This document shows positions 2,921-13,138 of a DNA stretch of 64,000 bases, piece after piece. The stretch is from Elusimicrobiota bacterium (GTDB lineage: Bacteria > Elusimicrobiota > Elusimicrobia > Elusimicrobiales > UBA9959), in the NCBI GenBank assembly GCA_016207645.1, contig JACQPH010000067.1, forward strand, positions 4,365-68,364. The letters are read 5' to 3'. Position 1 is the stretch's first letter. Each line of letters starts with the position of its first letter. The notes under the pieces are model-generated. The model searched no databases. It was not told the DNA's origin and was given only the letters and a program-made list of their open reading frames with translations. A program made the translations under genes and the position numbers.

Positions 2921-2985
2921 AAGAAGGCAGCGGTGATCGGGTGGGGCGGTGAAGAAACAAATCCAACCCCTTAAATCCGGCTATT
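2921..2985. repeat. Direct repeat copy B (partner at 163-223)
   Basis: See copy A. Lies in the 270-nt non-coding gap between the abiEi start and the BrnA-like gene. Confidence 0.6.
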
Positions 2986-3045
2986 TATGGTATATACTGT
3001 AAATACGGACTTTAACTAGGGCGACTCGTAGTGAAAGGAGGCAAT

Positions 3046-3339
3046 ATGAAAAAAATAAAGGAATTCCCCTTTAAGCAGGCTCATCGGGTTACAGGTAAAG
3101 AGGTGGAGATGGCCAGGAAGGCTATCGAAGCCAAGCTCGGCGTCAAAAGACCTTCCCGCGGGCGGCCTCTGAAAGGACCTGAGAAATATAAGTCCATTCA
3201 GATCCGGCTGAACCCTAAAGCGCTGGAATGGGCACTCGCTCAGGCAAAGCATCGCGGCATCGGCTATCAAACGCTTATCAATGAAATTCTCATGCAGCGC
3301 GCGACCGGGCGCCACGCTCACCACACCCCGCATAAATAG
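3046..3339 (+). CDS. BrnA/CopG-like antitoxin (no cognate toxin gene present)
   Basis: C-terminal KSIQIRLNPKALEWALAQAKHRGIGYQTLINEIL matches the ribbon-helix-helix BrnA-type pattern. ATG at 3046 is preceded by AGGAGG at 3036-3041. Confidence 0.6.
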   Translation: MKKIKEFPFKQAHRVTGKEVEMARKAIEAKLGVKRPSRGRPLKGPEKYKSIQIRLNPKALEWALAQAKHRGIGYQTLINEILMQRATGRHAHHTPHK

Positions 3340-3450
3340 CTCGTTCGTCTGGACTGAGGGGACGCATATGGCGATGTGGCCGTACGGGAAAACCCGGCGG
3401 TTCTATCCCTGCAGGGGCCGCCGGCTCGTTCATTTTATCCAGGCCGTCGG

Positions 3451-4002
3451 TTAAAAAAGAGCTTTGAGGTTTTTCAGGATTTCCGGCGCGGCTTTTATTT
3501 CCGCCAGGGGTGTCAGGCGTTCCAGGATATAGGTTTTATCCAGCCGCCCCGGGTCACGCTCTATTACCGTTTTAACATCGGCCCAGTCCCTTGTCCGGTT
3601 GGCAAATGATTTCATGACGATCAGGTCTTCGGCCGAGCAGGTTAGCAGGCGGAGCCCGGGAAGGAATTCGAAAACAGTCGCGCGGTCTACGGCCTCCTCC
3701 TCGAAAGGCAGGGCGGCAAGGGCGATGTCCAGCGCTATACCGCCGGCTGATTTAAGAAGCAGCACCCTGTTTTCCGCCGCGAAGGCGGCGGCGTCGGGGA
3801 TCCTGGAGCGATATTCCTTAAGAAGCGCGCGGATAAAAGGCGCCTCTCCGCCGTAGCCGGTAAGAAGCGTTACATCCACGTCTACGGTGACACGAGGTTC
3901 TCCCCAGCGCTGAAGCGCAATGCCGCCGATAAAACAGAACCGGTATTTTTCTTTTTCCAGGAAAGTCTGAAGTTCGGCCGCGGTCTGGAAGAGGGTTTTC
4001 AC
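3451..4002 (-). CDS. Nucleotidyltransferase-fold protein (unclassified, putative toxin/antitoxin component)
   Basis: 183 aa. FIGGIALQRWGEPRVTVDVDVTLL resembles the minimal nucleotidyltransferase G-x-A ... D-x-D signature. Confidence 0.6.
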   Translation of the reverse strand: MKTLFQTAAELQTFLEKEKYRFCFIGGIALQRWGEPRVTVDVDVTLLTGYGGEAPFIRALLKEYRSRIPDAAAFAAENRVLLLKSAGGIALDIALAALPFEEEAVDRATVFEFLPGLRLLTCSAEDLIVMKSFANRTRDWADVKTVIERDPGRLDKTYILERLTPLAEIKAAPEILKNLKALF

Positions 4003-4223
4003 CTTCTTAACCTCATGAACCAGCGCTGCTGTTCGATAAGGCCGGAAGAAGTGCGGGCGGGATAATTAAGAAGGGCCGACTGGAAAGAATCCTCGAGCTG
4101 CTCGATAGAGGAGCCGACAACGACCTGGCGCAGTTCCTGTAAGCGGATGCGCTCAAGTTCGGGGCCGGTTTTCCGCCACCGGGCAACCCACTCCCGCATG
4201 GCGTCTGTTTTTGGATCATTCAT
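3999..4223 (-). CDS. Small helical partner protein of the 3451-4002 nucleotidyltransferase
   Basis: 4-nt stop/start overlap with the downstream gene. Start is uncertain (ATG at 4223, 4247 or 4334). No family recognised. Confidence 0.45.
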   Translation of the reverse strand: MNDPKTDAMREWVARWRKTGPELERIRLQELRQVVVGSSIEQLEDSFQSALLNYPARTSSGLIEQQRWFMRLRR

Positions 4224-4377
4224 AAGCCCGATAATACATTTTAGCATTTTAAGGGCAGGGGTCCGGCGCGCCGCCCCGGGTTTACGTTTACAGGGGACCA
4301 ATTGACATGGTAGTTCCATCCCGGCCCTGAGCACAATTACAGCGCGTCACTGGATAGTAATTTGTATAATAACGCAG

Positions 4378-4710
4378 ATGAAAGTCGACGAGCGCAGGAA
4401 ATGGATCAAAGCGATCACTACGCGCATAGCTGAACAGGTCAACCCCGAAAAGATAGTTTTATTCGGCTCTTTTGCGTACGGAAAGCCGGGCCGTTCCAGC
4501 GATATTGACCTGCTGGTGGTATGCAACCGCCCGCAGGACAAAAAAAAGCGCTATAAGCTGGTGGACCTGGCCATTGGCAGCCATATTTTTCCTGTAGATG
4601 TGCTGGTGCGCAGTTCAGCGGAGATTTCGCGCCGCCTGGACATAGGCGACAGTTTTATCCACGAGATCATGAACCGCGGCAAAGTCCTGTATGAGTCCCA
4701 TATACATTAA
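4378..4710 (+). CDS. MNT-type nucleotidyltransferase (type VII TA antitoxin)
   Basis: KIVLFGSFAYGKPGRSSDIDLLVV is the canonical minimal nucleotidyltransferase motif. Overlaps the downstream HEPN gene by 20 nt. Confidence 0.8.
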   Translation: MKVDERRKWIKAITTRIAEQVNPEKIVLFGSFAYGKPGRSSDIDLLVVCNRPQDKKKRYKLVDLAIGSHIFPVDVLVRSSAEISRRLDIGDSFIHEIMNRGKVLYESHIH

Positions 4711-5095
4711 AGAGTGGGTCAGGAAAGCGGAAGCCGACCGCCTGGCGGCGCGGAGGGCGTTGAGCGACGCCAGGCGCCGCAAGGACCAGGCTGAAATAGC
4801 CTGTTTCCACGCCCAACAGTGCGCCGAAAAATACATGAAGGCTGTCCTCGCGTTCCGCGGCAAGCCGGCGCCCAGGACACATGACCTGCTGGCGCTGGCA
4901 AAAATGCTGGAAGATTGCGGGATATCCGCTGAGCCGATGAAAGCCGGATTCAGGGAATTGAACCGTTACGCCGTCGAGATCCGCTATCCCGGCGAAACAA
5001 CCACTGTAAAAGAAGCCTCCGAAGCGGTGCTCCTTATGGAAAAAACCGCTCTCTTTGCCTCAAAGATATTAAAACAGCGCCCGCCTACAGCATAG
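4691..5095 (+). CDS. HEPN domain protein (toxin partner of MNT)
   Basis: 134-aa helical protein containing an R-x4-H match (RYAVEIRYPGE region) in the classic MNT-HEPN gene order. Confidence 0.75.
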   Translation: MSPIYIKEWVRKAEADRLAARRALSDARRRKDQAEIACFHAQQCAEKYMKAVLAFRGKPAPRTHDLLALAKMLEDCGISAEPMKAGFRELNRYAVEIRYPGETTTVKEASEAVLLMEKTALFASKILKQRPPTA

Positions 5096-5113
5096 CAGGC
5101 CGCTTCGCCCGCC

Positions 5114-6481
5114 TCAGCCTTTCAATATATCTATCTTCCGCCACAGTCCCGAGCGGAAGCGCAGGCCGAAGAATACCGCCAGCAGGACCATGTAGAAGGC
5201 GCCCCAGGCCCAGGCGTGGATCAGCTCGCCGCCGGCGTAGTGGGTGATGTACCAGATACCGGGCACGAAGAGGAGCCAGGCGGCGGCGCTTCCGCCCAGC
5301 ATCTGGAAGCGCGTGTCCCCCGCCCCGCGCAAAGCGTCGGCGAAGACCATCCCTATCGCGTCGAAGAAGACGAACACGGCCAGGACTTTCATCACCGGCC
5401 TGCTCCTGGCCAGTATGTCGGCGTATTCCGCGGCGTTTCCGGAGCCGAAAATATTCACAAATACGCCCGGCACCGCCATGAACAGTACGCCGAGGAACAG
5501 GGCGTAGAGCGCGGCGAGCTTCGCCCCGTTATAGGCGACCCGCACCGCCGAGTCCGGCTTGCGCATGCCGATGTACTTTCCCACCACGGTAAGGGTGGCT
5601 ATGCCGAGCCCGATGACGGGCATGAAGGCTATCATGTTTATCGAGGCGATGATATTGCTGGCGGCCAGCGAGACCTTGTCCATCGCGCCGACGATGAAGA
5701 TGAAGGCGCCGAAGGAAGCCACGTCCAGGAAGAAGCCCACGCCGTTGGGCGCGCCATATTTCACGAGGCGGAGGAACAGGTCCTTGTGCACCCCCACCAG
5801 CCGGGCGGTGCGGTAGCGGCGGCGGTTCTCTGCGGAGAAGATCAGCGCGAGGTAAAGCGCCAGCATCAGCGCCTGGCCGGCCACCATGGCGAGAGCGGCG
5901 CCTTTTATCCCCATCGCGGGGACCGGCCCTGCGCCGAAGATCAGCAGCCAGGAAAGCAGCAAGCAGAGGGCGTTGCCGGCGATGTTGACGACCATCGGCA
6001 CCTTGGTGAGGCCGCGACCGGTGAAGAAAGAGGACAGGGCTGCGCTGGTGAGGTAGATGATCCCGCAGGAGTTCAGTACCAGGAAATACTCTTTCTCCAG
6101 CGCCCTCACCGGCGCGGCGTGGCCGGAATGGCCGATTATGTAGAACCCGGCCGGGGTGAGGGCCAGCAGCAGCAGCCCGGCGGCTGCGGCCAGCCAGACG
6201 CCCTGCCAGACGGCTACGGAGACACTGGCGGTTTTCCCCCTGCCGTGGTACTGGGAGACGAAGGCGTTGGTATACGAGACCACGCCGAAGAAGAAACAGC
6301 AGAAGACGAAGGCGAGCATGCCGGCCGGCACGCAGGCGGCCAGGGCGTCGGGGCTGTAATGGGCGAGGAAGAGCCGGTTGACGAACTGCATCACCGTGGT
6401 GGAGGCGGTGGACAGCATCATCGGGTAGGCCACCCCCAGCAGTTCGCCTATGCCGCCCTCGCCGCGGGTGAATAATTTCAT
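5114..6481 (-). CDS. MATE family efflux transporter
   Basis: 455 aa, about 12 hydrophobic helices. The N-terminal LLGVAYPMMLSTASTTVMQFVNRLFLAHY and internal GAGDTRF motifs are typical of MATE/NorM proteins. Confidence 0.85.
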   Translation of the reverse strand: MKLFTRGEGGIGELLGVAYPMMLSTASTTVMQFVNRLFLAHYSPDALAACVPAGMLAFVFCCFFFGVVSYTNAFVSQYHGRGKTASVSVAVWQGVWLAAAAGLLLLALTPAGFYIIGHSGHAAPVRALEKEYFLVLNSCGIIYLTSAALSSFFTGRGLTKVPMVVNIAGNALCLLLSWLLIFGAGPVPAMGIKGAALAMVAGQALMLALYLALIFSAENRRRYRTARLVGVHKDLFLRLVKYGAPNGVGFFLDVASFGAFIFIVGAMDKVSLAASNIIASINMIAFMPVIGLGIATLTVVGKYIGMRKPDSAVRVAYNGAKLAALYALFLGVLFMAVPGVFVNIFGSGNAAEYADILARSRPVMKVLAVFVFFDAIGMVFADALRGAGDTRFQMLGGSAAAWLLFVPGIWYITHYAGGELIHAWAWGAFYMVLLAVFFGLRFRSGLWRKIDILKG

Positions 6482-6809: not shown

Positions 6810-8648
6810 CTAATCGTACTCTTTCTCGCCGCGCTTGCGCAGGCTGTGGTCCAGCACCTTCTTGCGCAGCCGCAGGCTCTTCGGCGTCACTTCCACGTAC
6901 TCGTCCTCCTCGACGTATTCGATAGCCTGCTCCAGGCTCATCACGCGGTGCGGGGTGAGCGCTATGGACATGTCCGAGGTGGAGGAGCGCATATTGGTCT
7001 GCTTCTTTTCCTTGCAGGGATTGGTGACCAGGTCGTTGGCGCGGCAGTGCTCGCCCACTATCTGCCCGGCGTAAATATCCTCGCCGGTGCCCACGAACAT
7101 GATGCCGTGGTCCTGCAGACCGTTCAGCGCGTAGCTGGCCGACCGGCCGGCTTCCTTGGCTATGAAGACGCCGTTGCGCTTGGGCCGGTTGAAATTGCCC
7201 TCGGGCAGGAAGCCGTGGAAGCTGTGGTGCATCAGGCCGGAGCCCTTGGTGAAGGTCATGAACTCCGACTTGAAGCCGATCAGGGCCTTGGAGGAGATGA
7301 CGTATTCGAAGCGGACGCGGCCGTCCTCGCCTATCACCATGTTCTTGAGCTGCGCGCCGCGGCAGCCCAGGCCGTTCATCACCGCGCCCTGGAACTCGGA
7401 GGGGGCGTCCAGCAGCAGGGACTCCACGGGCTCTACGGTGACGCCGTTCTCCTCGTGGGTGATCACGACCATCTTGGAGACGCAGAGCTCGAAGCCCTCG
7501 CGCCGCATGGTCTCGATGAGGATGGAAAGGTGCAGCTCGCCGCGGCCGGATACTTTAAAGCCGCCGTCGGGGAGCTCTTCCACTTTCAGGCCGACGTTGA
7601 TCTGCTGCTCCTTAAGGAGCCGGTCGCGGAGCTGGGTGGCGGTGACGAACTTGCCCTCTCGGCCGGAGAAGGGCCCGTCGTTGGCGTAGAATTCCATCGA
7701 GAGGGTGGGCTGCTCTATCTCGAGGCCGGGCAGCACGCCGGGGTTTTCCGGGGTGGAGATGGTGTCGCCGACTTCGATGCCTTCAAGCCCGGCCACGGCC
7801 ACGATGTCGCCGGAGCGGGCCTCTTTAATGACGCAGCGCTCCAGGCCTTTATAGCCCATGAGCTGCATGACCTTGCGGGTCTGCGGCAGGGAAGTGGGAC
7901 AGGCCATGGAGACCTGCTGGCCGGCGGCTATCTTTCCCTGCACTATGCGGCCGACGCCGATGCGCCCGGTGTAGGAGCTGTAGTCGAGCATGGTGACGAG
8001 CAGCCGGAGCGGCTGGTCGTCCAGGTCGAGCGGGCCCGGAACGGTCTTTATGATGGTCTCGAAGAGGTGGGAGAGGTCTTTGCCGGGCTTGTGGTAGTCG
8101 GCGGAGGCCCAGCCGTCGCGGCCTACGGCGTAGACTACGGGGAAGTCGAGCTGGGCGTCGCTGGCGCCGAGCTCCATGAACAGGGCGAAGACCTTGTCGA
8201 GGGAGGCGTGGGGGTCGCAGTTGAGGCGGTCGACCTTGTTGATGACGACGATGGGGCGCAGGCCGAGGGCGAGGGATTTCTTGAGGACGAAGCGGGTCTG
8301 GGGCATGGGGCCGTCGAGGGCGTCCACGAGGAGGAGCACGCCGTCCACCATGCGCAGCACGCGCTCGACTTCGCTGCCGAAGTCGGCGTGGCCGGGGGTG
8401 TCGACTATATGGATGGTGGTGTCTTTATAGCGGACGGAGGTGTTCTTGGAGAGGATGGTGATGCCGCGCTCTTTTTCGAGGTCGTTGGAGTCCATGATGC
8501 AGATGGCTTCCTCGCCGGATTTGTCGTGGTAGGCGCCGGTCTGCTTGAGCATGGCGTCGACGAGGGTGGTTTTGCCGTGGTCGACGTGGGCGATGATGGC
8601 GATATTGCGCAGGTCCTGCCGGCGCTTGGCGGCTGTTTCATGTTGCAT
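6810..8648 (-). CDS. typA: Translational GTPase TypA/BipA
   Basis: [24 protein letters not shown] and NKVDR G-motifs, with full-length (612 aa) BipA architecture. Confidence 0.95.
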
Positions 8649-8660
8649 GTGTTTTTTCCT

Positions 8661-10478
8661 CTACTGCGCGGCCGCGCCTTCTCCGCTTTCAAGCGCCTTC
8701 AGCTCCTCGGTGTGGGAGGTTATTTTGGTTTCCAGGGCGGTTATTTTATCGCCCAGCTCTTTGACCTGTTTGTAATCCGAGTGGATTTCGGGGGCGGACA
8801 TTCTGGCGGCGAGGCTTTCCACGGTTTTCCGGGAGTAGGCTATCTCTTTCCTGAGGGTCTCGGCGCGGCGCGTCTTTTTGCGGGCTTCGGCTTCCTGGCG
8901 CTTTTTCTCCTCGTAGCAGGAGTTGTCGGCTTTGGGCGGCGCTTTCGCCTCCTCTTTCTTTCTGGCGCCGGCGTTCTCGGCCTGGAGCTGGTTCTGGCGG
9001 TAGCGGAAGTAATCGTAGTTGCCGGGGTAGACGGTGGTCTTGCCCTGCTCGATGTGGACCACGGAGTCGGCGAGGGCGTTTATGAAATAGATGTCGTGGC
9101 TGATGAAGCAGAGGGTGCCCTCGAATTCCTTCAGGGCGGCTATCAGCGCGTCCACGCTGGCCATGTCGAGGTGAGTGGTGGGCTCGTCCATCAATATGAC
9201 GTTGGGCGGGTCCATCAGCAGCTTCACCAGCATCAGGCGGCTCTTCTCTCCGCCGGAGAGCACCTCGGTCTTCTTATAGACGTTGTCGCCCGGAAAAAGG
9301 AAGGTGCCGAGCACGGTGCGGACCGCCAGCTCCGGGTTCAGGCGGTCGTTGTCCATGGCTTCCTGCAGCACGGTCTTGCGCGGGTCCAGGATGCCTTCGC
9401 GGTGCTGGGAGAAATAGCCGGTCTTCACGTTCAAACCCGGCACACGCTCTCCGGAATCGGGCTCTATCACTCCGGCCAGCATTTTCAGCAGGGTGGATTT
9501 GCCGGCGCCGTTATGCCCGACGAAGGCCATCTTCTGGCCGCGCTGGAGCTGGAAATCGAAACCCTCGTAGACCGTTATGGGCTCGTGGTCCGGCACATTG
9601 TAGACCTTGCTTATGTTCCTGAGCTCCAGCACATTGGTGCCGGTGCGGTTGGGCTGCGGGAAGCGCATTTTCACTGTCTTGACTTCCTGCACCAGCTCGA
9701 TGCGCTCCAGCTTGTCCAGGCGCTTGATCATGCTCTGCACGCGCGCGGCGGTGGAGACGCGGGCCCGGTTGCGGGCTATGAAATCCTCCATCTGCGCTAT
9801 CTCTTCCTGCTGCAGGCGCCAGGCGGAATAGATCTTTTCCTTCTCGGACCGGCGCTGGGCCAGGAAATTCTCGTAGTCGCCGTGGTAGACGCGCAGGGTC
9901 TTGTCCTGCAGGGAGACGATGGCGCTGCAGATCTTGTTGATGAAATCGCGGTCATGGGAGATGACGAAGATGGCTCCCTGGTAGCCGTGCAGGTATTCCT
10001 CCAGCCAAAGCAGGGAGTCCAGGTCCAGGTGGTTGGTGGGTTCGTCCAGCAGCAGCAGGTCCGGCTTCTTGAGCAGCAGCTTCCCCATGGCCACGCGCAT
10101 GGCCCAGCCGCCGCTGAGGGTGTTGACCTTGCGGGTGAAGTCGGCGACCTTGAAGCCGAGGCCCATCAGTATGGCCTTGCCTTCGGCCTCTATGCGGCCG
10201 TCGTAATCCTCCACGCCGTCCAGCGTTTCCTCTATCACCGTGCGGTCCGACACAGGCGCGTTCTCCTGAGGCAGGTAGCCCACCACCACGCCCTTCTTGA
10301 ACTGTATCTCGCCGTCGTCGGCTTCCTCGGCCCGGAGCATCATCTTGAAAAGCGTGGATTTGCCCGCGCCGTTGGGGCCGACCAGCGCGAAGCGCTCCCC
10401 CTCGTTTATCTGGAGGGAGGCGTCCTCGAAAAGGACCTGCGAGGAGAAGGATTTGTATACGTTCCTGAGAGTTATCAT
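8661..10478 (-). CDS. ABC-F family ATPase (ribosome-associated, no membrane domain)
   Basis: Two ABC cassettes (GPNGAGKSTL and GHNGAGKSTL Walker A; LSGG signatures twice) joined by a linker, plus a C-terminal coiled-coil tail. Confidence 0.9.
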   Translation of the reverse strand: MITLRNVYKSFSSQVLFEDASLQINEGERFALVGPNGAGKSTLFKMMLRAEEADDGEIQFKKGVVVGYLPQENAPVSDRTVIEETLDGVEDYDGRIEAEGKAILMGLGFKVADFTRKVNTLSGGWAMRVAMGKLLLKKPDLLLLDEPTNHLDLDSLLWLEEYLHGYQGAIFVISHDRDFINKICSAIVSLQDKTLRVYHGDYENFLAQRRSEKEKIYSAWRLQQEEIAQMEDFIARNRARVSTAARVQSMIKRLDKLERIELVQEVKTVKMRFPQPNRTGTNVLELRNISKVYNVPDHEPITVYEGFDFQLQRGQKMAFVGHNGAGKSTLLKMLAGVIEPDSGERVPGLNVKTGYFSQHREGILDPRKTVLQEAMDNDRLNPELAVRTVLGTFLFPGDNVYKKTEVLSGGEKSRLMLVKLLMDPPNVILMDEPTTHLDMASVDALIAALKEFEGTLCFISHDIYFINALADSVVHIEQGKTTVYPGNYDYFRYRQNQLQAENAGARKKEEAKAPPKADNSCYEEKKRQEAEARKKTRRAETLRKEIAYSRKTVESLAARMSAPEIHSDYKQVKELGDKITALETKITSHTEELKALESGEGAAAQ

Positions 10479-10655
10479 AAAAAAAAGCCGCGCCTTACAG
10501 CGCGATCAGTAGTGATTTTTGCCGGGAACCGAAGGACTTCCGCTCAGGCCAGCCGGACCGTCTATATTATTATTTTAGCATTTTCCGGGCGGCTAAATTA
10601 TATCGCGCGTCCTTTTTATATAATTATGCGAGACGGTTTAGTCATGGAGGTCCCT

Positions 10656-10925
10656 ATGTCCGACACGGTTATAAATATCGCCTGGGCCGTGGTTTTCTCG
10701 CTCGTTGGCGGCGCGGCCGGAGCTTTTCTCCTCGTCTGGTTCTCCTCGCGCATCCCCGCCGTCTTCAACAAGATCACCCCGGACATGGACGAGGGCAAGG
10801 AAATAATCCGGGGCAACCGCGCCGTGGCCGAATATTTCGGGCGCATCGTTTCGGCGGCCATACTCGGCGTCAGCGTGATAATAGCGGCGGCCGTACTGGG
10901 CGGGCTGGTAGCCGCGCTGCACTGA
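10656..10925 (+). CDS. DUF350-family small membrane protein
   Basis: Two hydrophobic helices flanking a conserved-looking EGKEIIRGNRAVA loop. ATG 10656 is preceded by GGAGG at 10646-10650. An upstream ATG at 10626 is directly abutted by TATAAT (10619-10624), so it is less likely. This is the only credible part of the giant 6846-10925 ORF. Confidence 0.65.
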   Translation: MSDTVINIAWAVVFSLVGGAAGAFLLVWFSSRIPAVFNKITPDMDEGKEIIRGNRAVAEYFGRIVSAAILGVSVIIAAAVLGGLVAALH

Positions 10926-12787
10926 TGAAAAACCTGCTGTTCGCGCTTTTACTCGCGGCTCCTCTCTCCTCCGCCTGGCCCCGGGCCGGCGGCGGGGGCG
11001 GCGGCGGCGGAGGAGGAGGCGGCGGGGGCGGCTGCTTCCCGGCCGGTACGATCGTGGCCACCGACGCCGGCGGGGTTCCCATAGAAAAAATACGCCCCGG
11101 CGACAAGGTGCTCGCTTACGCCGACGGACGCCTGGTGCGCTCGGTGGTGAAGGGATTTTACGAGAAGAAAGACCGCCTGATGGTCATCCGCACCAATAAA
11201 GGCAGGCTGACGGCCACTTCGGAACATCCGCTGCTCACGCGCGCAGGTTTCACCGAGGTCCGCGACCTAAAAAAGGGCATGGAAGTGGCGGTGCTCTCCG
11301 AAGGCCGCCGGCTCTGGGCGAAAATAAAGTCCATTAAGCCGGGCGGCGTGGCGGCCGTCTACAACCTGGAGGTCGCGCCCCCCAACACTTTCATAGCCGG
11401 CGGCTTCATCGTCCATAACAAGGGCGGCGGTTCCTACGGCGGCGGGTACGGCGGCAGGGATCACGATCCCGGCTACGACAGCGGCTATTACCGCGGCGGC
11501 TATTACCGCGGCCGCTATCCGCACAGGAGGACCGCCGGGGATAATCTGCTGTACGCCATCGCGGGGACCGTCCTGCTGATCAAGGGCTTTCTTTTCTTTT
11601 CCGAACGCAGGGGCGGATATTCCGGTGGTTCCTCCGGCGGCCAGGGGAAAAGCGGCCTCCTGGCCAACGGCGACGTGATGCCGAGGGCCGACGCCACCCT
11701 GGACATTATTAAAAGCCTTTCGCACAGCGACCCGGAGTTCGAGCCCGGCGCGCTGGAAAGCCTGGTGAGGAACGTCTTCATACGCGTGCAGACCGCCTGG
11801 CAGGCCCGCGATTACAGCACGCTGGGCGGCGTAATGATGCCCAGCCTCCACGCGGGCCACAGCGCGAAAGTCGCGGCCATGAAGGAAAGGGGCGAGATAA
11901 ACATGCTGGAGGACCTCAATGTCCTCCACGTGGACTTCGTGCACGTGCGCTGTACGCCCGAGAAGGAAGGGCGTGCTTTCACGGCCCTGGTCACGGCCTC
12001 GGCTAAGGATTACACTATAAACGAAAGCACCGGCTTCCGCGGGGAAGGCAGCCTGGAGCCCTCGACCTTCCAGGAATACTGGACTTTCTACCGGAACGGC
12101 GGGAACTGGGCCCTGGCCCGCATCGACCAGCTGGGCGACCTGGACTTCCTGAACGCCCCGAACCTGCCGGCCGGGCCGCCGGCCGCCGGAACTTTCCCGC
12201 GGGCGGTCTCCGGCCCCGCCGCTCTCGCGGCCGCCGCCCCTTCCTCTTACCAGCCCCCGCTCCCCCCGGCGGCGGCAAGGGGCGGCGCCCCCGCCGCGCC
12301 GGACGGCCGCTGGGACAGGCAGAAAATGGAGATCGCGGCCACGCTGGCTTTCGAAAGCGTCTACGGGGCCTGGGGAAAGAACGACAGCTCCCTGCTGAGC
12401 GCGGATTTCGTCTCGGCGGAAGCGCTGGCCAGGCTGAAAAAAGTGATGGAGGCGCGGAGATCTGAAGGTTTGACCTTCGAGTTCAACAACCTGTTCGCGC
12501 GCAGGGCGGAAATAGTGCTGACCAGCCCCGCCGAAAAAAGCAGGCTGCGCCTCGACGAATTCACGGCCAGGATAACGGCCACGGCGTTGCGCGCGATGCT
12601 GCGCAACGGCAAGCCGCTCCACCGCGACGCGGCGCCGGAGCCTTTTACCGAATACTGGGTCTTCGGCCGTCAGAAGGACGACTGGAAGCTGCGGGACATA
12701 CTGCCGCGGATGGAGCAGGAAGGCGCGGACAATACCCAGGACGGGGCCCCGAGCCCCGCGCAGATAGAATGGTACTGGTCAGCCTAG
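10925..12787 (+). CDS. Exported/membrane protein: signal peptide - 15xGly - Hint (intein-like) domain - Gly/Tyr-rich linker - TM helix - two Tim44-like domains
   Basis: Signal-like MKNLLFALLLAAPLSSA. Hint blocks CFPAGT, TATSEHP, VYNLEVAPPNTFIAGGFIVHN. TM helix LLYAIAGTVLLIKGFLFF. Two C-terminal modules with a Tim44-like pattern (FEPGALESLVRNVFIRVQTAW...YWTF..NGGNWALARI and ...FTEYWVFGRQKDDWKLRDI). The ATG overlaps the DUF350 stop (TGATG). Confidence 0.8.
   Translation: MKNLLFALLLAAPLSSAWPRAGGGGGGGGGGGGGGGCFPAGTIVATDAGGVPIEKIRPGDKVLAYADGRLVRSVVKGFYEKKDRLMVIRTNKGRLTATSEHPLLTRAGFTEVRDLKKGMEVAVLSEGRRLWAKIKSIKPGGVAAVYNLEVAPPNTFIAGGFIVHNKGGGSYGGGYGGRDHDPGYDSGYYRGGYYRGRYPHRRTAGDNLLYAIAGTVLLIKGFLFFSERRGGYSGGSSGGQGKSGLLANGDVMPRADATLDIIKSLSHSDPEFEPGALESLVRNVFIRVQTAWQARDYSTLGGVMMPSLHAGHSAKVAAMKERGEINMLEDLNVLHVDFVHVRCTPEKEGRAFTALVTASAKDYTINESTGFRGEGSLEPSTFQEYWTFYRNGGNWALARIDQLGDLDFLNAPNLPAGPPAAGTFPRAVSGPAALAAAAPSSYQPPLPPAAARGGAPAAPDGRWDRQKMEIAATLAFESVYGAWGKNDSSLLSADFVSAEALARLKKVMEARRSEGLTFEFNNLFARRAEIVLTSPAEKSRLRLDEFTARITATALRAMLRNGKPLHRDAAPEPFTEYWVFGRQKDDWKLRDILPRMEQEGADNTQDGAPSPAQIEWYWSA
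10988..11032 (+). repeat. Imperfect (GGN)15 trinucleotide tract encoding 15 consecutive glycines
   Basis: ggc ggc ggg ggc ggc ggc ggc gga gga gga ggc ggc ggg ggc ggc, read in frame directly before the Cys codon at 11033. Confidence 0.95.
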
Positions 12788-13138
12788 AAGTCTCACTTTA
12801 TAGCCGGCGGCTTCGAGCTCGGTTCTTACGAAAGCCCGGCGGTCTCCCTGCAGCTCCAGCACCCCGTCCTTGACGGTGCCGCCGGCGCCGAGGCGCTTCT
12901 TGAATTTCTTCAGCAGCTCTTCCTTGCCCGCCGGGTGCATGGGAAGTTTCTCCACCAGAGTAAGCCCGCTGCCTTTGCCCGTCCTGCGGAAAGAGACGCG
13001 CACCGGCTCGGTCTGGTTCCTCTTGCGCACTTCCCCCGCCAGCCCCTCGGGGCAGGCGCAGGGGGTCTTCCCGCAGTTGGGGCAGTTCACTTTTCCATCG
13101 GGTCCGGTGGAATAGACCAGCCTGTCATTTTCTCCCAT
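12779..13138 (-). CDS. yciH: SUI1/YciH-family translation initiation factor
   Basis: 119 aa. The core (RVSFRRTGKGSGLTLV ... LKKRLGAGGTVKDGVLELQGD) matches the SUI1 fold pattern. Confidence 0.85.
   Translation of the reverse strand: MGENDRLVYSTGPDGKVNCPNCGKTPCACPEGLAGEVRKRNQTEPVRVSFRRTGKGSGLTLVEKLPMHPAGKEELLKKFKKRLGAGGTVKDGVLELQGDRRAFVRTELEAAGYKVRLLG

Follow-up and report, generated by a model that had tools for sequence, protein, structure and literature searches.

Bacterial intein-like (BIL) domains cleave and sometimes ligate in vitro, and why cells keep them has been a question since their description. Type A BIL domains end in a His-Asn pair, have no nucleophile at the +1 position, and mostly cleave; when they splice, the liberated amino group reacts with the thioester (PMC4031507, PMC7664689). 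BIL domains occur in nonconserved regions of bacterial proteins, which are often secreted, and are not accompanied by a homing endonuclease (PMC7765530). In the related BUBL BIL2, the thioester is resolved by the ε-amine of a Lys (PMC8616854). Here, we analyzed a 64,000-nucleotide stretch of DNA from an Elusimicrobiota bacterium (assembly GCA_016207645.1, contig JACQPH010000067.1, positions 4365 to 68364 of the forward strand; hereafter, the window), in which a Hint domain is encoded within the gene of a Tim44-like protein (the Hint-Tim44 gene). We propose, with a probability of roughly 0.7, that this domain is a type-A-BIL-like periplasmic autoprocessing module in an inner-membrane Tim44-like protein with a DUF350-like partner.

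Identification and classification of the Hint domain

Positions 11033 to 11419 of the window encode a Hint domain. The original prediction, which had been made from the nucleotide sequence and its open reading frames (ORFs), is thereby confirmed, and its limits coincide exactly with codons 37 to 165 of the Hint-Tim44 gene. Among the Pfam models, PT-HINT (PF07591; 32.4 bits, cut-off 27.7) and Hint_2 (31.9 bits, cut-off 28.4) exceeded their thresholds with the window protein, and Intein_splicing (30.3 bits, cut-off 35.8) and Hint (26.7 bits, cut-off 29.7) fell below theirs; the NCBIfam model intein_Cterm also passed (17.4 bits, cut-off 15.6). The AlphaFold2 model of the 129-residue domain, for which 42 related Hints served as the alignment input, had a predicted local distance difference test (pLDDT) score of 97.4. 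In the Foldseek search with this model, the NpuDnaB and RecA mini-inteins gave a template modeling (TM) score of 0.92, followed by the Clostridium thermocellum BIL (Protein Data Bank [PDB] ID: 2lwy; 0.87), Tetrahymena BUBL BIL2 (0.85), and Hedgehog Hh-C (0.82). The catalytic motifs that had been named beforehand are all present: Cys1 (Cys37), the T-x-x-H of block B (T98-S-E-H101, followed by Pro), and the block F/G stretch VYNLEVAPPNTFIAGGFIVH164-N165, which contains Asn147 at block F position 4 and is followed by Lys166.

Homologues were collected by a word-indexed search, which gave approximately 80 proteins, mostly from Elusimicrobia metagenome bins, and by an exhaustive search with a profile of the Hint alignment, which added many more. 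Domain borders were set by hidden Markov models built in this analysis. The resulting family set consists of 132 proteins with a double-Tim44 C terminus and contains 220 complete Hints, of which 209 were aligned for the inner positions. When the family profile was compared with the PDB, the C. thermocellum BIL 2lwy was the top match (87.7 bits, E = 8e-24), and the best intein was that of RecA (64.7 bits, E = 1e-16). This order of BIL over intein comes from the family profile only; in the phmmer search with the single window sequence, the RecA mini-intein of Mtu (E = 2e-7) ranks above the BIL (E = 7e-5). The alignments further show that the Asn at block F position 4 is common to the family and the C. 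thermocellum BIL, whereas the RecA intein has Asp there. The assignment to the BIL domains, which had been suggested from the motifs, is strengthened by these comparisons.

The sequence has the features of a type A BIL, that is, Cys37, T98-x-x-H101, the terminal His164-Asn165 pair, no Cys, Ser, or Thr at the +1 position, and a mini domain without a homing endonuclease in a low-complexity Gly-rich tail. Class 1 inteins have a Cys, Ser, or Thr at +1, but Lys166 occupies this position in the window protein, as had been noted, and none of the 220 family Hints has one of these three residues there. The host site also differs from that of class 1 inteins, being a low-complexity linker (pairwise identity of 0.51 versus 0.57–0.67 in the domains). 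A Hog-type Hint is not indicated either, as the domain ends with His-Asn followed by Lys and a disordered linker, and the adduct/sterol-recognition region is absent. A polymorphic toxin of the pretoxin-HINT type was considered and rejected, because two Tim44-like domains lie downstream, the neighboring genes are SUI1, MatE, and PAP2, and no toxin or immunity genes were found.

Protein architecture and proposed mechanism

The Hint domain is preceded by a signal-peptide-like N terminus and a short Gly-rich segment. The first 17 residues contain Lys2, a hydrophobic core at residues 4–15, and S-S-A before Trp18, and this layout is common to nearly all homologues. A lipoprotein signal was rejected because a conserved lipobox Cys is absent. 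The segment between the likely signal peptidase site and Cys37 comprises 19 residues (WPRA and Gly15), in agreement with the predicted length of about 20. Sequence, Pfam, hydropathy, and model agree on what had been described for the remainder of the protein, namely a Gly-rich linker as the site of the Hint, one transmembrane helix, and two downstream Tim44-like domains. At its start, the linker after the Hint is encoded by GGC GGC GGT repeats, a counterpart to the Gly run upstream of the Hint. The Pfam Tim44 model (PF04280) matches the window protein in two stretches (88.8 bits, cut-off 29.6, E = 5e-25). Among the NCBIfam models, Tim44_TimA_adap aligns to residues 471–584 at a score under its cut-off, and the TimA equivalog NF033778 scores 25.8 bits against a cut-off of 200. 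The full-length AlphaFold2 model consists of three confident globular domains (Hint and two Tim44-like domains), the transmembrane helix, and disordered linkers; a Foldseek search with this model returned intein matches only, none of which was informative on the Tim44 part. Cys residues are found only at positions 37 and 343, and Cys37 is the sole Cys of the exported part.

Mitochondrial Tim44 is located on the matrix side. This analogy, the conserved signal-peptide layout, the single downstream transmembrane helix, and the single exported Cys all suggest that the Hint is located outside the cytoplasm. Export had been predicted for the protein as a whole. It can be expected for the N-terminal tail, but the Tim44 domains follow the stop-transfer helix and should be cytoplasmic.

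The functional unit in the proposed mechanism is the cassette Gly/Cys...His-Asn/Lys (slashes mark the borders of the Hint), which is ancient and occurs in one to five tandem copies. The partner gene and the Hint-Tim44 gene, for which a one-base overlap of stop and start codons and a conserved gene order are observed, are probably co-translated. The N terminus would be exported by the Sec pathway, the signal peptide would be cut after Ala17, and helix 207–226 would function as the stop-transfer segment that leaves the Tim44 domains in the cytoplasm. The Hint would fold outside the cytoplasm, where Cys37, aided by Thr98 and His101, may form a thioester at the Gly36-Cys37 bond by an N–S acyl shift, as judged by homology. 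Asn165, aided by His164, would cyclize and cut the Asn165-Lys166 bond. The thioester could be resolved in two ways. Attack by water would result in cleavage and give an Arg/poly-Gly peptide of about 19 residues and a free 14-kDa Hint. Alternatively, the amine of the freed Lys166 may attack the thioester, as proposed for type A BILs. In this case, the poly-Gly stub would be rejoined to the linker, and the mature protein would resemble the orthologues that have no Hint.

Copy number and conservation of the junctions

The number of Hints per protein ranges widely among the 132 family members: ten proteins have none, 60 have one, 25 have two, 28 have three, eight have four, and one has five. They are always located between the signal-peptide-like segment and the transmembrane helix. 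Conservation of Cys1 and His-Asn, on which the original prediction depended, was evident in the homologues: position 1 is Cys in 212 of the 220 Hints (Ser in one), and the last two residues are His-Asn in all 220. The flanking residues are nearly as constant, with Gly at position −1 and Lys at position +1 in 213 Hints each, and Tyr or Arg in the remaining +1 positions. The spacers between tandem Hints are Lys plus one to seven Gly, most commonly Lys-Gly. In 101 of 118 proteins, the periplasmic tail has no Lys other than the one at +1, and Arg provides the positive charge there. In contrast to these positions, the block-F His position is variable (His in 126, Asn in 42, and Gly in 28 of the 209 aligned Hints), and the 42 Hints with Asn keep all other catalytic residues.

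Inheritance and selection

For 48 single-Hint orthologues, the mean pairwise identity of the Hint (0.61) is comparable with those of the two Tim44 domains (0.57 and 0.67), and those of the linkers are 0.42–0.51. The pairwise identities of Hint and Tim44 correlate (r = 0.85), and the GC content of the Hint is that of the remaining gene. In the three-Hint proteins, the nearest relative of each Hint is usually at the same position in another protein, and the copies inside one such protein are only 37% identical; the arrays are thus old and not the result of recent amplification. Of the three positions in the triple arrays, the last is slightly nearer to the window Hint (0.38) than the others are (0.33–0.34). 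These patterns indicate that the Hint is vertically inherited and under purifying selection. Recent horizontal insertion was rejected because of the gene-like GC content and the correlated Hint and host distances.

The window, a locus whose protein is 72% identical (L001), and the locus of the Hint-less protein P0055 (L003) share one syntenic position. Alignment to Hint-less homologues had been proposed as a check, and the insertion point is now fixed by the Hint-less orthologues that occupy this syntenic position. The P0055 tail consists of a signal peptide and ARAG-S-GGG-FSSGGGYY..., that is, both flanks joined without the Lys, and Lys is absent from the Gly-rich stretch of all Hint-less family proteins. 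Apart from the missing Lys, this tail resembles what ligation is predicted to produce. In the window, the Hint and Lys166 are bracketed on both sides by runs of GGN codons, and such repeats are a plausible route for in-frame Hint loss. To reconstruct the history of the Hint, a neighbor-joining tree with 100 bootstrap replicates was built from the Tim44 region, the three-Hint clade served as the root, and changes were scored by parsimony. Presence of the Hint was ancestral in 100 of 100 replicates, with three to five independent losses (four losses in 92 replicates). Within this family, Hint-less proteins therefore descend from Hint-bearing ancestors, and a recent insertion can be dismissed. 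The linker had been identified correctly as the site of the Hint, but the direction of change in the family is loss instead of gain.

A selfish passenger could also leave such a pattern. In this scenario, the Hint is a mini-intein-like element that gives no benefit to the host and persists by clean self-removal while its copy number drifts between zero and five. The occurrence of Hint-less orthologues at the same locus with three to five losses, the range of copy numbers, the presence of related Hints in unrelated proteins, and the GGN repeats around the Hint and Lys, which are a substrate for in-frame deletion or duplication, would all be accounted for. Nevertheless, we consider this scenario unlikely. 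There is no homing endonuclease and hence no driver of spread. If inactive, an insert in a low-complexity linker would be expected either to be tolerated or to disappear; instead, the catalytic residues hardly vary across phyla, and the Hint matches the Tim44 domains in conservation. The arrays are also old and position specific, and the distances of Hint and host correlate.

Coupling of Cys1, the poly-Gly segment, and the +1 Lys

Seven Hints without Cys1 carry Gly or Leu at this position. In all seven, the poly-Gly N-extein is gone because a signal-peptidase-like site abuts the Hint, the +1 residue is Tyr or Arg, and His-Asn is kept. On the same tree, Cys1 loss was scored as three events in 90 replicates and as two in 10. 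The +1 Lys probably behaves as a part of the Hint cassette, because it is lost with Cys1 and Lys is otherwise nearly excluded from the tail; its covariation suggests that its retention depends on the thioester-forming Cys. Resolution of the thioester by the Lys amine would fit this covariation better than two independent cleavages.

The same junctions allow further possibilities in which the thioester serves a purpose other than removal of the Hint. The cassette Gly/Cys...His-Asn/Lys may be an ATP-independent periplasmic ligation device, in which the Gly thioester is captured by the adjacent Lys amine (possibly the ε-amine, which would give an isopeptide-branched tail as in BUBL) or by an external amine of the envelope. 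We offer this as a speculation that is quite unlikely to be correct. If true, the arrays of up to five would do several transfers per molecule in a working cycle of the DUF350/Tim44-like envelope system, beyond self-removal.

Transfer in the manner of Hedgehog or BUBL, in which an external amine or hydroxyl takes Gly36 to form a poly-Gly conjugate or isopeptide product, would use as acceptor a Lys side chain (including the ε-amine of Lys166), peptidoglycan, phosphatidylethanolamine, or a polyamine. The near-invariant Gly at −1 and Lys at +1, which are lost with Cys1, and the exclusion of Lys from the rest of the tail are compatible with it. BUBL BIL2, a structural match with a TM score of 0.85, splices to an isopeptide bond at a Lys ε-amino group (PMC8616854), and DUF350/YjfL is found in polyamine-related envelope operons (PMC11237479). 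We regard such a transfer as very improbable, however. The adduct-recognition region is absent after the Hint. The N-extein consists of no more than Arg and poly-Gly, and the Cys1-less lineages manage without it. The "extein" between two Hints can be a mere Lys-Gly, which is implausible as a cargo, and nothing points to an acceptor. Self-processing and transfer of a poly-Gly peptide had both been raised as speculations for this domain, and self-processing is the better supported of the two.

A catalytically silent Hint that acts in the periplasm as a folded module or as a spacer would suit the conservation of the seven Cys1-less relatives and the Asn154 of the window protein in place of the common block-F His, but this is scarcely credible. 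The invariant His-Asn and the conservation of Cys1, Thr, and His at 96% or more each are unexpected for a purely structural role, and the few forms without Cys1 are derived.

Several points weigh against the periplasmic autoprocessing module. The seven Cys1-less Hints are well conserved (~57% identity), which would mean that C-terminal cleavage is enough by itself or that the role of the domain is noncatalytic. Asn154 of the window protein, which replaces the block-F His of about 60% of the relatives, might slow down Asn cyclization. The signal peptide and topology were judged by eye and hydropathy, and the charges flanking the transmembrane helix are not decisive. The activity, location, and products of all family members are deduced from their sequences. 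The existence of Hint-less orthologues means that the host protein can do without the Hint, and a function at the level of the host is hypothetical; because these orthologues are viable, any benefit of the Hint is not essential. The proposed mechanism also does not account for a gain from a domain that is removed, still less from as many as five. The conservation pattern argues against a purely selfish or dead Hint.

Gene organization and the DUF350-like partner

The coordinates of the features are listed in Table 1. The partner gene probably starts at the ATG at 10656 (MSDTV...), with the in-frame ATG at 10644 as an alternative, and its TGA stop shares one base with the ATG of the Hint-Tim44 gene. 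The product of the partner gene has two hydrophobic segments and is 54–89% identical to its counterparts from loci of Elusimicrobia and Thermodesulfobacteriota. The partner gene was found directly upstream of the Tim44 gene in 34 of 34 loci with enough upstream DNA. A separate Hint-less member (L030, 3265..4690) has a DUF350-like gene downstream of the Tim44 gene. Pfam DUF350 matched three of five partner orthologues (best E = 6.7e-7) and gave no match with the window copy, whose DUF350 affinity is therefore that of the orthologues only. DUF350/YjfL proteins are uncharacterized, and their genes recur in envelope-stress and polyamine-related operons (PMC11237479).

The order BipA, ABC-F, ~90-residue gene, Tim44 gene, SUI1, MatE, and PAP2 is shared by the window, L001, and L003. 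An ORF of 1359 residues at 6846..10925 (+) is mostly a high-GC antisense artifact opposite BipA and ABC-F; only its final ~90 codons are real and correspond to the DUF350-like partner. The ends of the Hint-Tim44 and SUI1/YciH-like genes overlap by 9 bp (12779..12787). Two close relatives have an additional gene of a Bax1-I (BI-1/YccA-like) membrane protein between Tim44 and SUI1 (L001, 9817..10479; L002, 2501..3163).

The intergenic region at 10479..10655, between the divergent ABC-F and DUF350-like genes, has a GC content of ~0.50, compared with 0.63–0.69 around it, and is likely the promoter region of the two-gene operon. A consensus scan of this region gave no clear sigma-70 match. A terminator-like hairpin with a T-run is located after the ABC-F gene (minus strand, 10505..10488).

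Table 1. Features of the Hint-Tim44 locus in window coordinates. Fractions refer to the family Hints.
Feature	Position	Strand	Basis
BipA	6810..8648	-	
ABC-F	8661..10478	-	
DUF350-like partner, ~90 aa, two transmembrane segments	10656..10925	+	homology to upstream genes in other loci
Hint-Tim44 gene, 620 aa: signal peptide, Gly-rich tail, Hint, transmembrane helix, two Tim44-like domains	10925..12787	+	ORF list, Pfam, homologues, full-length model
Signal-peptide-like N terminus MKNLLFALLLAAPLSSA, residues 1-17	10925..10975	+	read from sequence; cleavage inferred
N-extein WPRA + Gly15, residues 18-36, run of GGN codons	10976..11032	+	ORF translation
Hint (type-A-BIL-like) domain, residues 37-165, CFPAGT to FIVHN, 129 aa	11033..11419	+	Pfam, phmmer, model, Foldseek, family profile
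Cys37 (Cys1), predicted thioester-forming nucleophile	11033..11035	+	Cys in 212/220
Block B, Thr98-Ser-Glu-His101	11216..11227	+	Thr in 203/209, His in 206/209
Asn147, block F position 4 (VYN-LEV)	11363..11365	+	Asn in 201/209, Asp in 1/209
Asn154, block-F His position (PPNTF; PPHTF in most relatives)	11384..11386	+	family alignment
His164-Asn165, block G pair, predicted Asn cyclization site	11414..11419	+	His-Asn in 220/220
Lys166, +1 residue	11420..11422	+	Lys in 213/220
Gly/Tyr/Arg-rich low-complexity linker, residues 166-206	11420..11542	+	composition; disordered in model
Single transmembrane helix, residues 207-226	11543..11602	+	Kyte-Doolittle scan; helix 207-226 in model
First Tim44-like domain, residues ~248-403	11666..12133	+	Pfam PF04280 best stretch 263-402; confident model segment
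Pro/Ala-rich low-complexity linker between the Tim44 domains	12131..12316	+	GC up to 0.75; pairwise identity 0.42; disordered in model
Second Tim44-like domain, residues ~465-593	12317..12703	+	second Pfam Tim44 stretch; model
SUI1/YciH-like gene, convergent	12779..13138	-	

Distribution and related Hints

A scan of one genome per species gave 36 loci, nearly all from Elusimicrobia bins. The sole cultured host found is a gammaproteobacterium, Legionella massiliensis LegA, and the remaining loci are from uncultured bins. In LegA, the two-gene module (L037, 2689..5565) consists of a DUF350-like gene and, after it, the gene of a three-Hint double-Tim44 protein (2977..5565) with the junctions RGGGG/C, HN/KG/C, HN/KGGG/C, and HN/KGGGG. 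In a Thermodesulfobacteriota locus (L004, 5114..5620), a LemA gene is present just upstream of the pair of DUF350-like and three-Hint Tim44 genes. The usual partners of LemA are TPM/YgcG-type membrane proteins, which also have Gly-rich tails.

Tandem arrays of related Hints were also found in proteins without Tim44 domains (P0094, P0120, P0137, P0142, and P0158). P0137 consists of a subtilase, a PKD domain, and four Hints, and P0094 contains about seven or more Hints. The junctions in the non-Tim44 proteins are often His-Asn/Lys-(Gly/Cys)-Cys, with Lys at +1 in 96 of 163 Hints; some of these 163 are probably fragments of Tim44-family proteins.

In the source databases, the family members are named only "TIM44-like domain-containing" or "hypothetical." Full-text literature searches for Tim44-like proteins with Hint domains, for TimA/Tim44 in bacteria, and for tandem Hint/BIL arrays gave nothing relevant. 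The domain type and chemistry are already known, and the (Hint)n-Tim44 family is apparently undescribed. The new elements, for which no description was found in these searches, are the Tim44-like/DUF350 host, the fixed Gly and Lys junctions, the ordered arrays of up to five, and the repeated co-loss of Cys1, poly-Gly, and the +1 Lys.

For the question of why cells keep BILs, the (Hint)n-Tim44 family constitutes a natural experiment. Orthologous genes at the same locus carry zero to five copies, the junctions are near-invariant, and Cys1, poly-Gly, and the +1 Lys have been lost together independently. The compartment is predicted to be periplasmic, the partner gene has been conserved, and there is at least one cultured host, L. 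massiliensis. With this family, it can be asked directly whether the +1 Lys is the resolving nucleophile, whether a peptide or an isopeptide is formed, and whether self-processing makes a difference to a widespread, uncharacterized Tim44-like/DUF350 membrane module. A compact, Cys-only, and periplasm-adapted Hint whose junctions are Gly and Lys could also serve protein engineering.

Comparison with known systems

The closest described system is the C. thermocellum BIL (2lwy), which shares with the window domain the Hint fold, Cys1, the TxxH-P motif, the Asn at block F position 4, and the terminal His-Asn. Neither has a Cys, Ser, or Thr at +1 or an endonuclease, and both are located in a variable region of an exported protein. 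They differ in the host, which is a conserved DUF350-partnered Tim44-like membrane protein in the present case and a hypervariable secreted protein in the case of the BILs. Fixed Gly/Cys and Asn/Lys junctions, vertical descent across phyla, and ordered arrays of up to five are further differences of the present family.

Tetrahymena thermophila BUBL BIL2 (PDB IDs: 6tmm and 6y75) resembles the window domain in structure and has a Gly-ended segment before the domain. BUBL BIL2 is eukaryotic and cytoplasmic and has ubiquitin-like domains on its flanks as cargo, whereas the N-terminal side here is only Arg plus poly-Gly. The closest folds are those of class 1 mini-inteins (NpuDnaB, Ssp DnaB, and Mtu RecA), which have TM scores of 0.90–0.92 and the same blocks A, B, F, and G. 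These inteins need a Cys, Ser, or Thr at +1, where the window domain has Lys, and block F position 4, which is Asn in the window domain, is usually Asp in them. Their insertion sites are conserved positions in essential cytoplasmic proteins, unlike the low-complexity exported linker in the Tim44-like protein.

Hedgehog Hh-C has in common with the window domain a Gly/Cys-Phe site, a thioester at the Gly carbonyl, and an exported compartment, the latter two being predicted features of our domain. Unlike Hh-C, which carries a sterol-recognition region and lacks a terminal His-Asn, the window domain ends with this pair and is followed by further protein. Pretoxin-HINT (PF07591) is the top-scoring Pfam Hint model for the window protein and likewise represents an extracytoplasmic self-cleaving Hint, as is predicted here. 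The difference lies in the downstream region, where the window protein has Tim44-like domains in place of a toxin domain and no immunity gene accompanies it.

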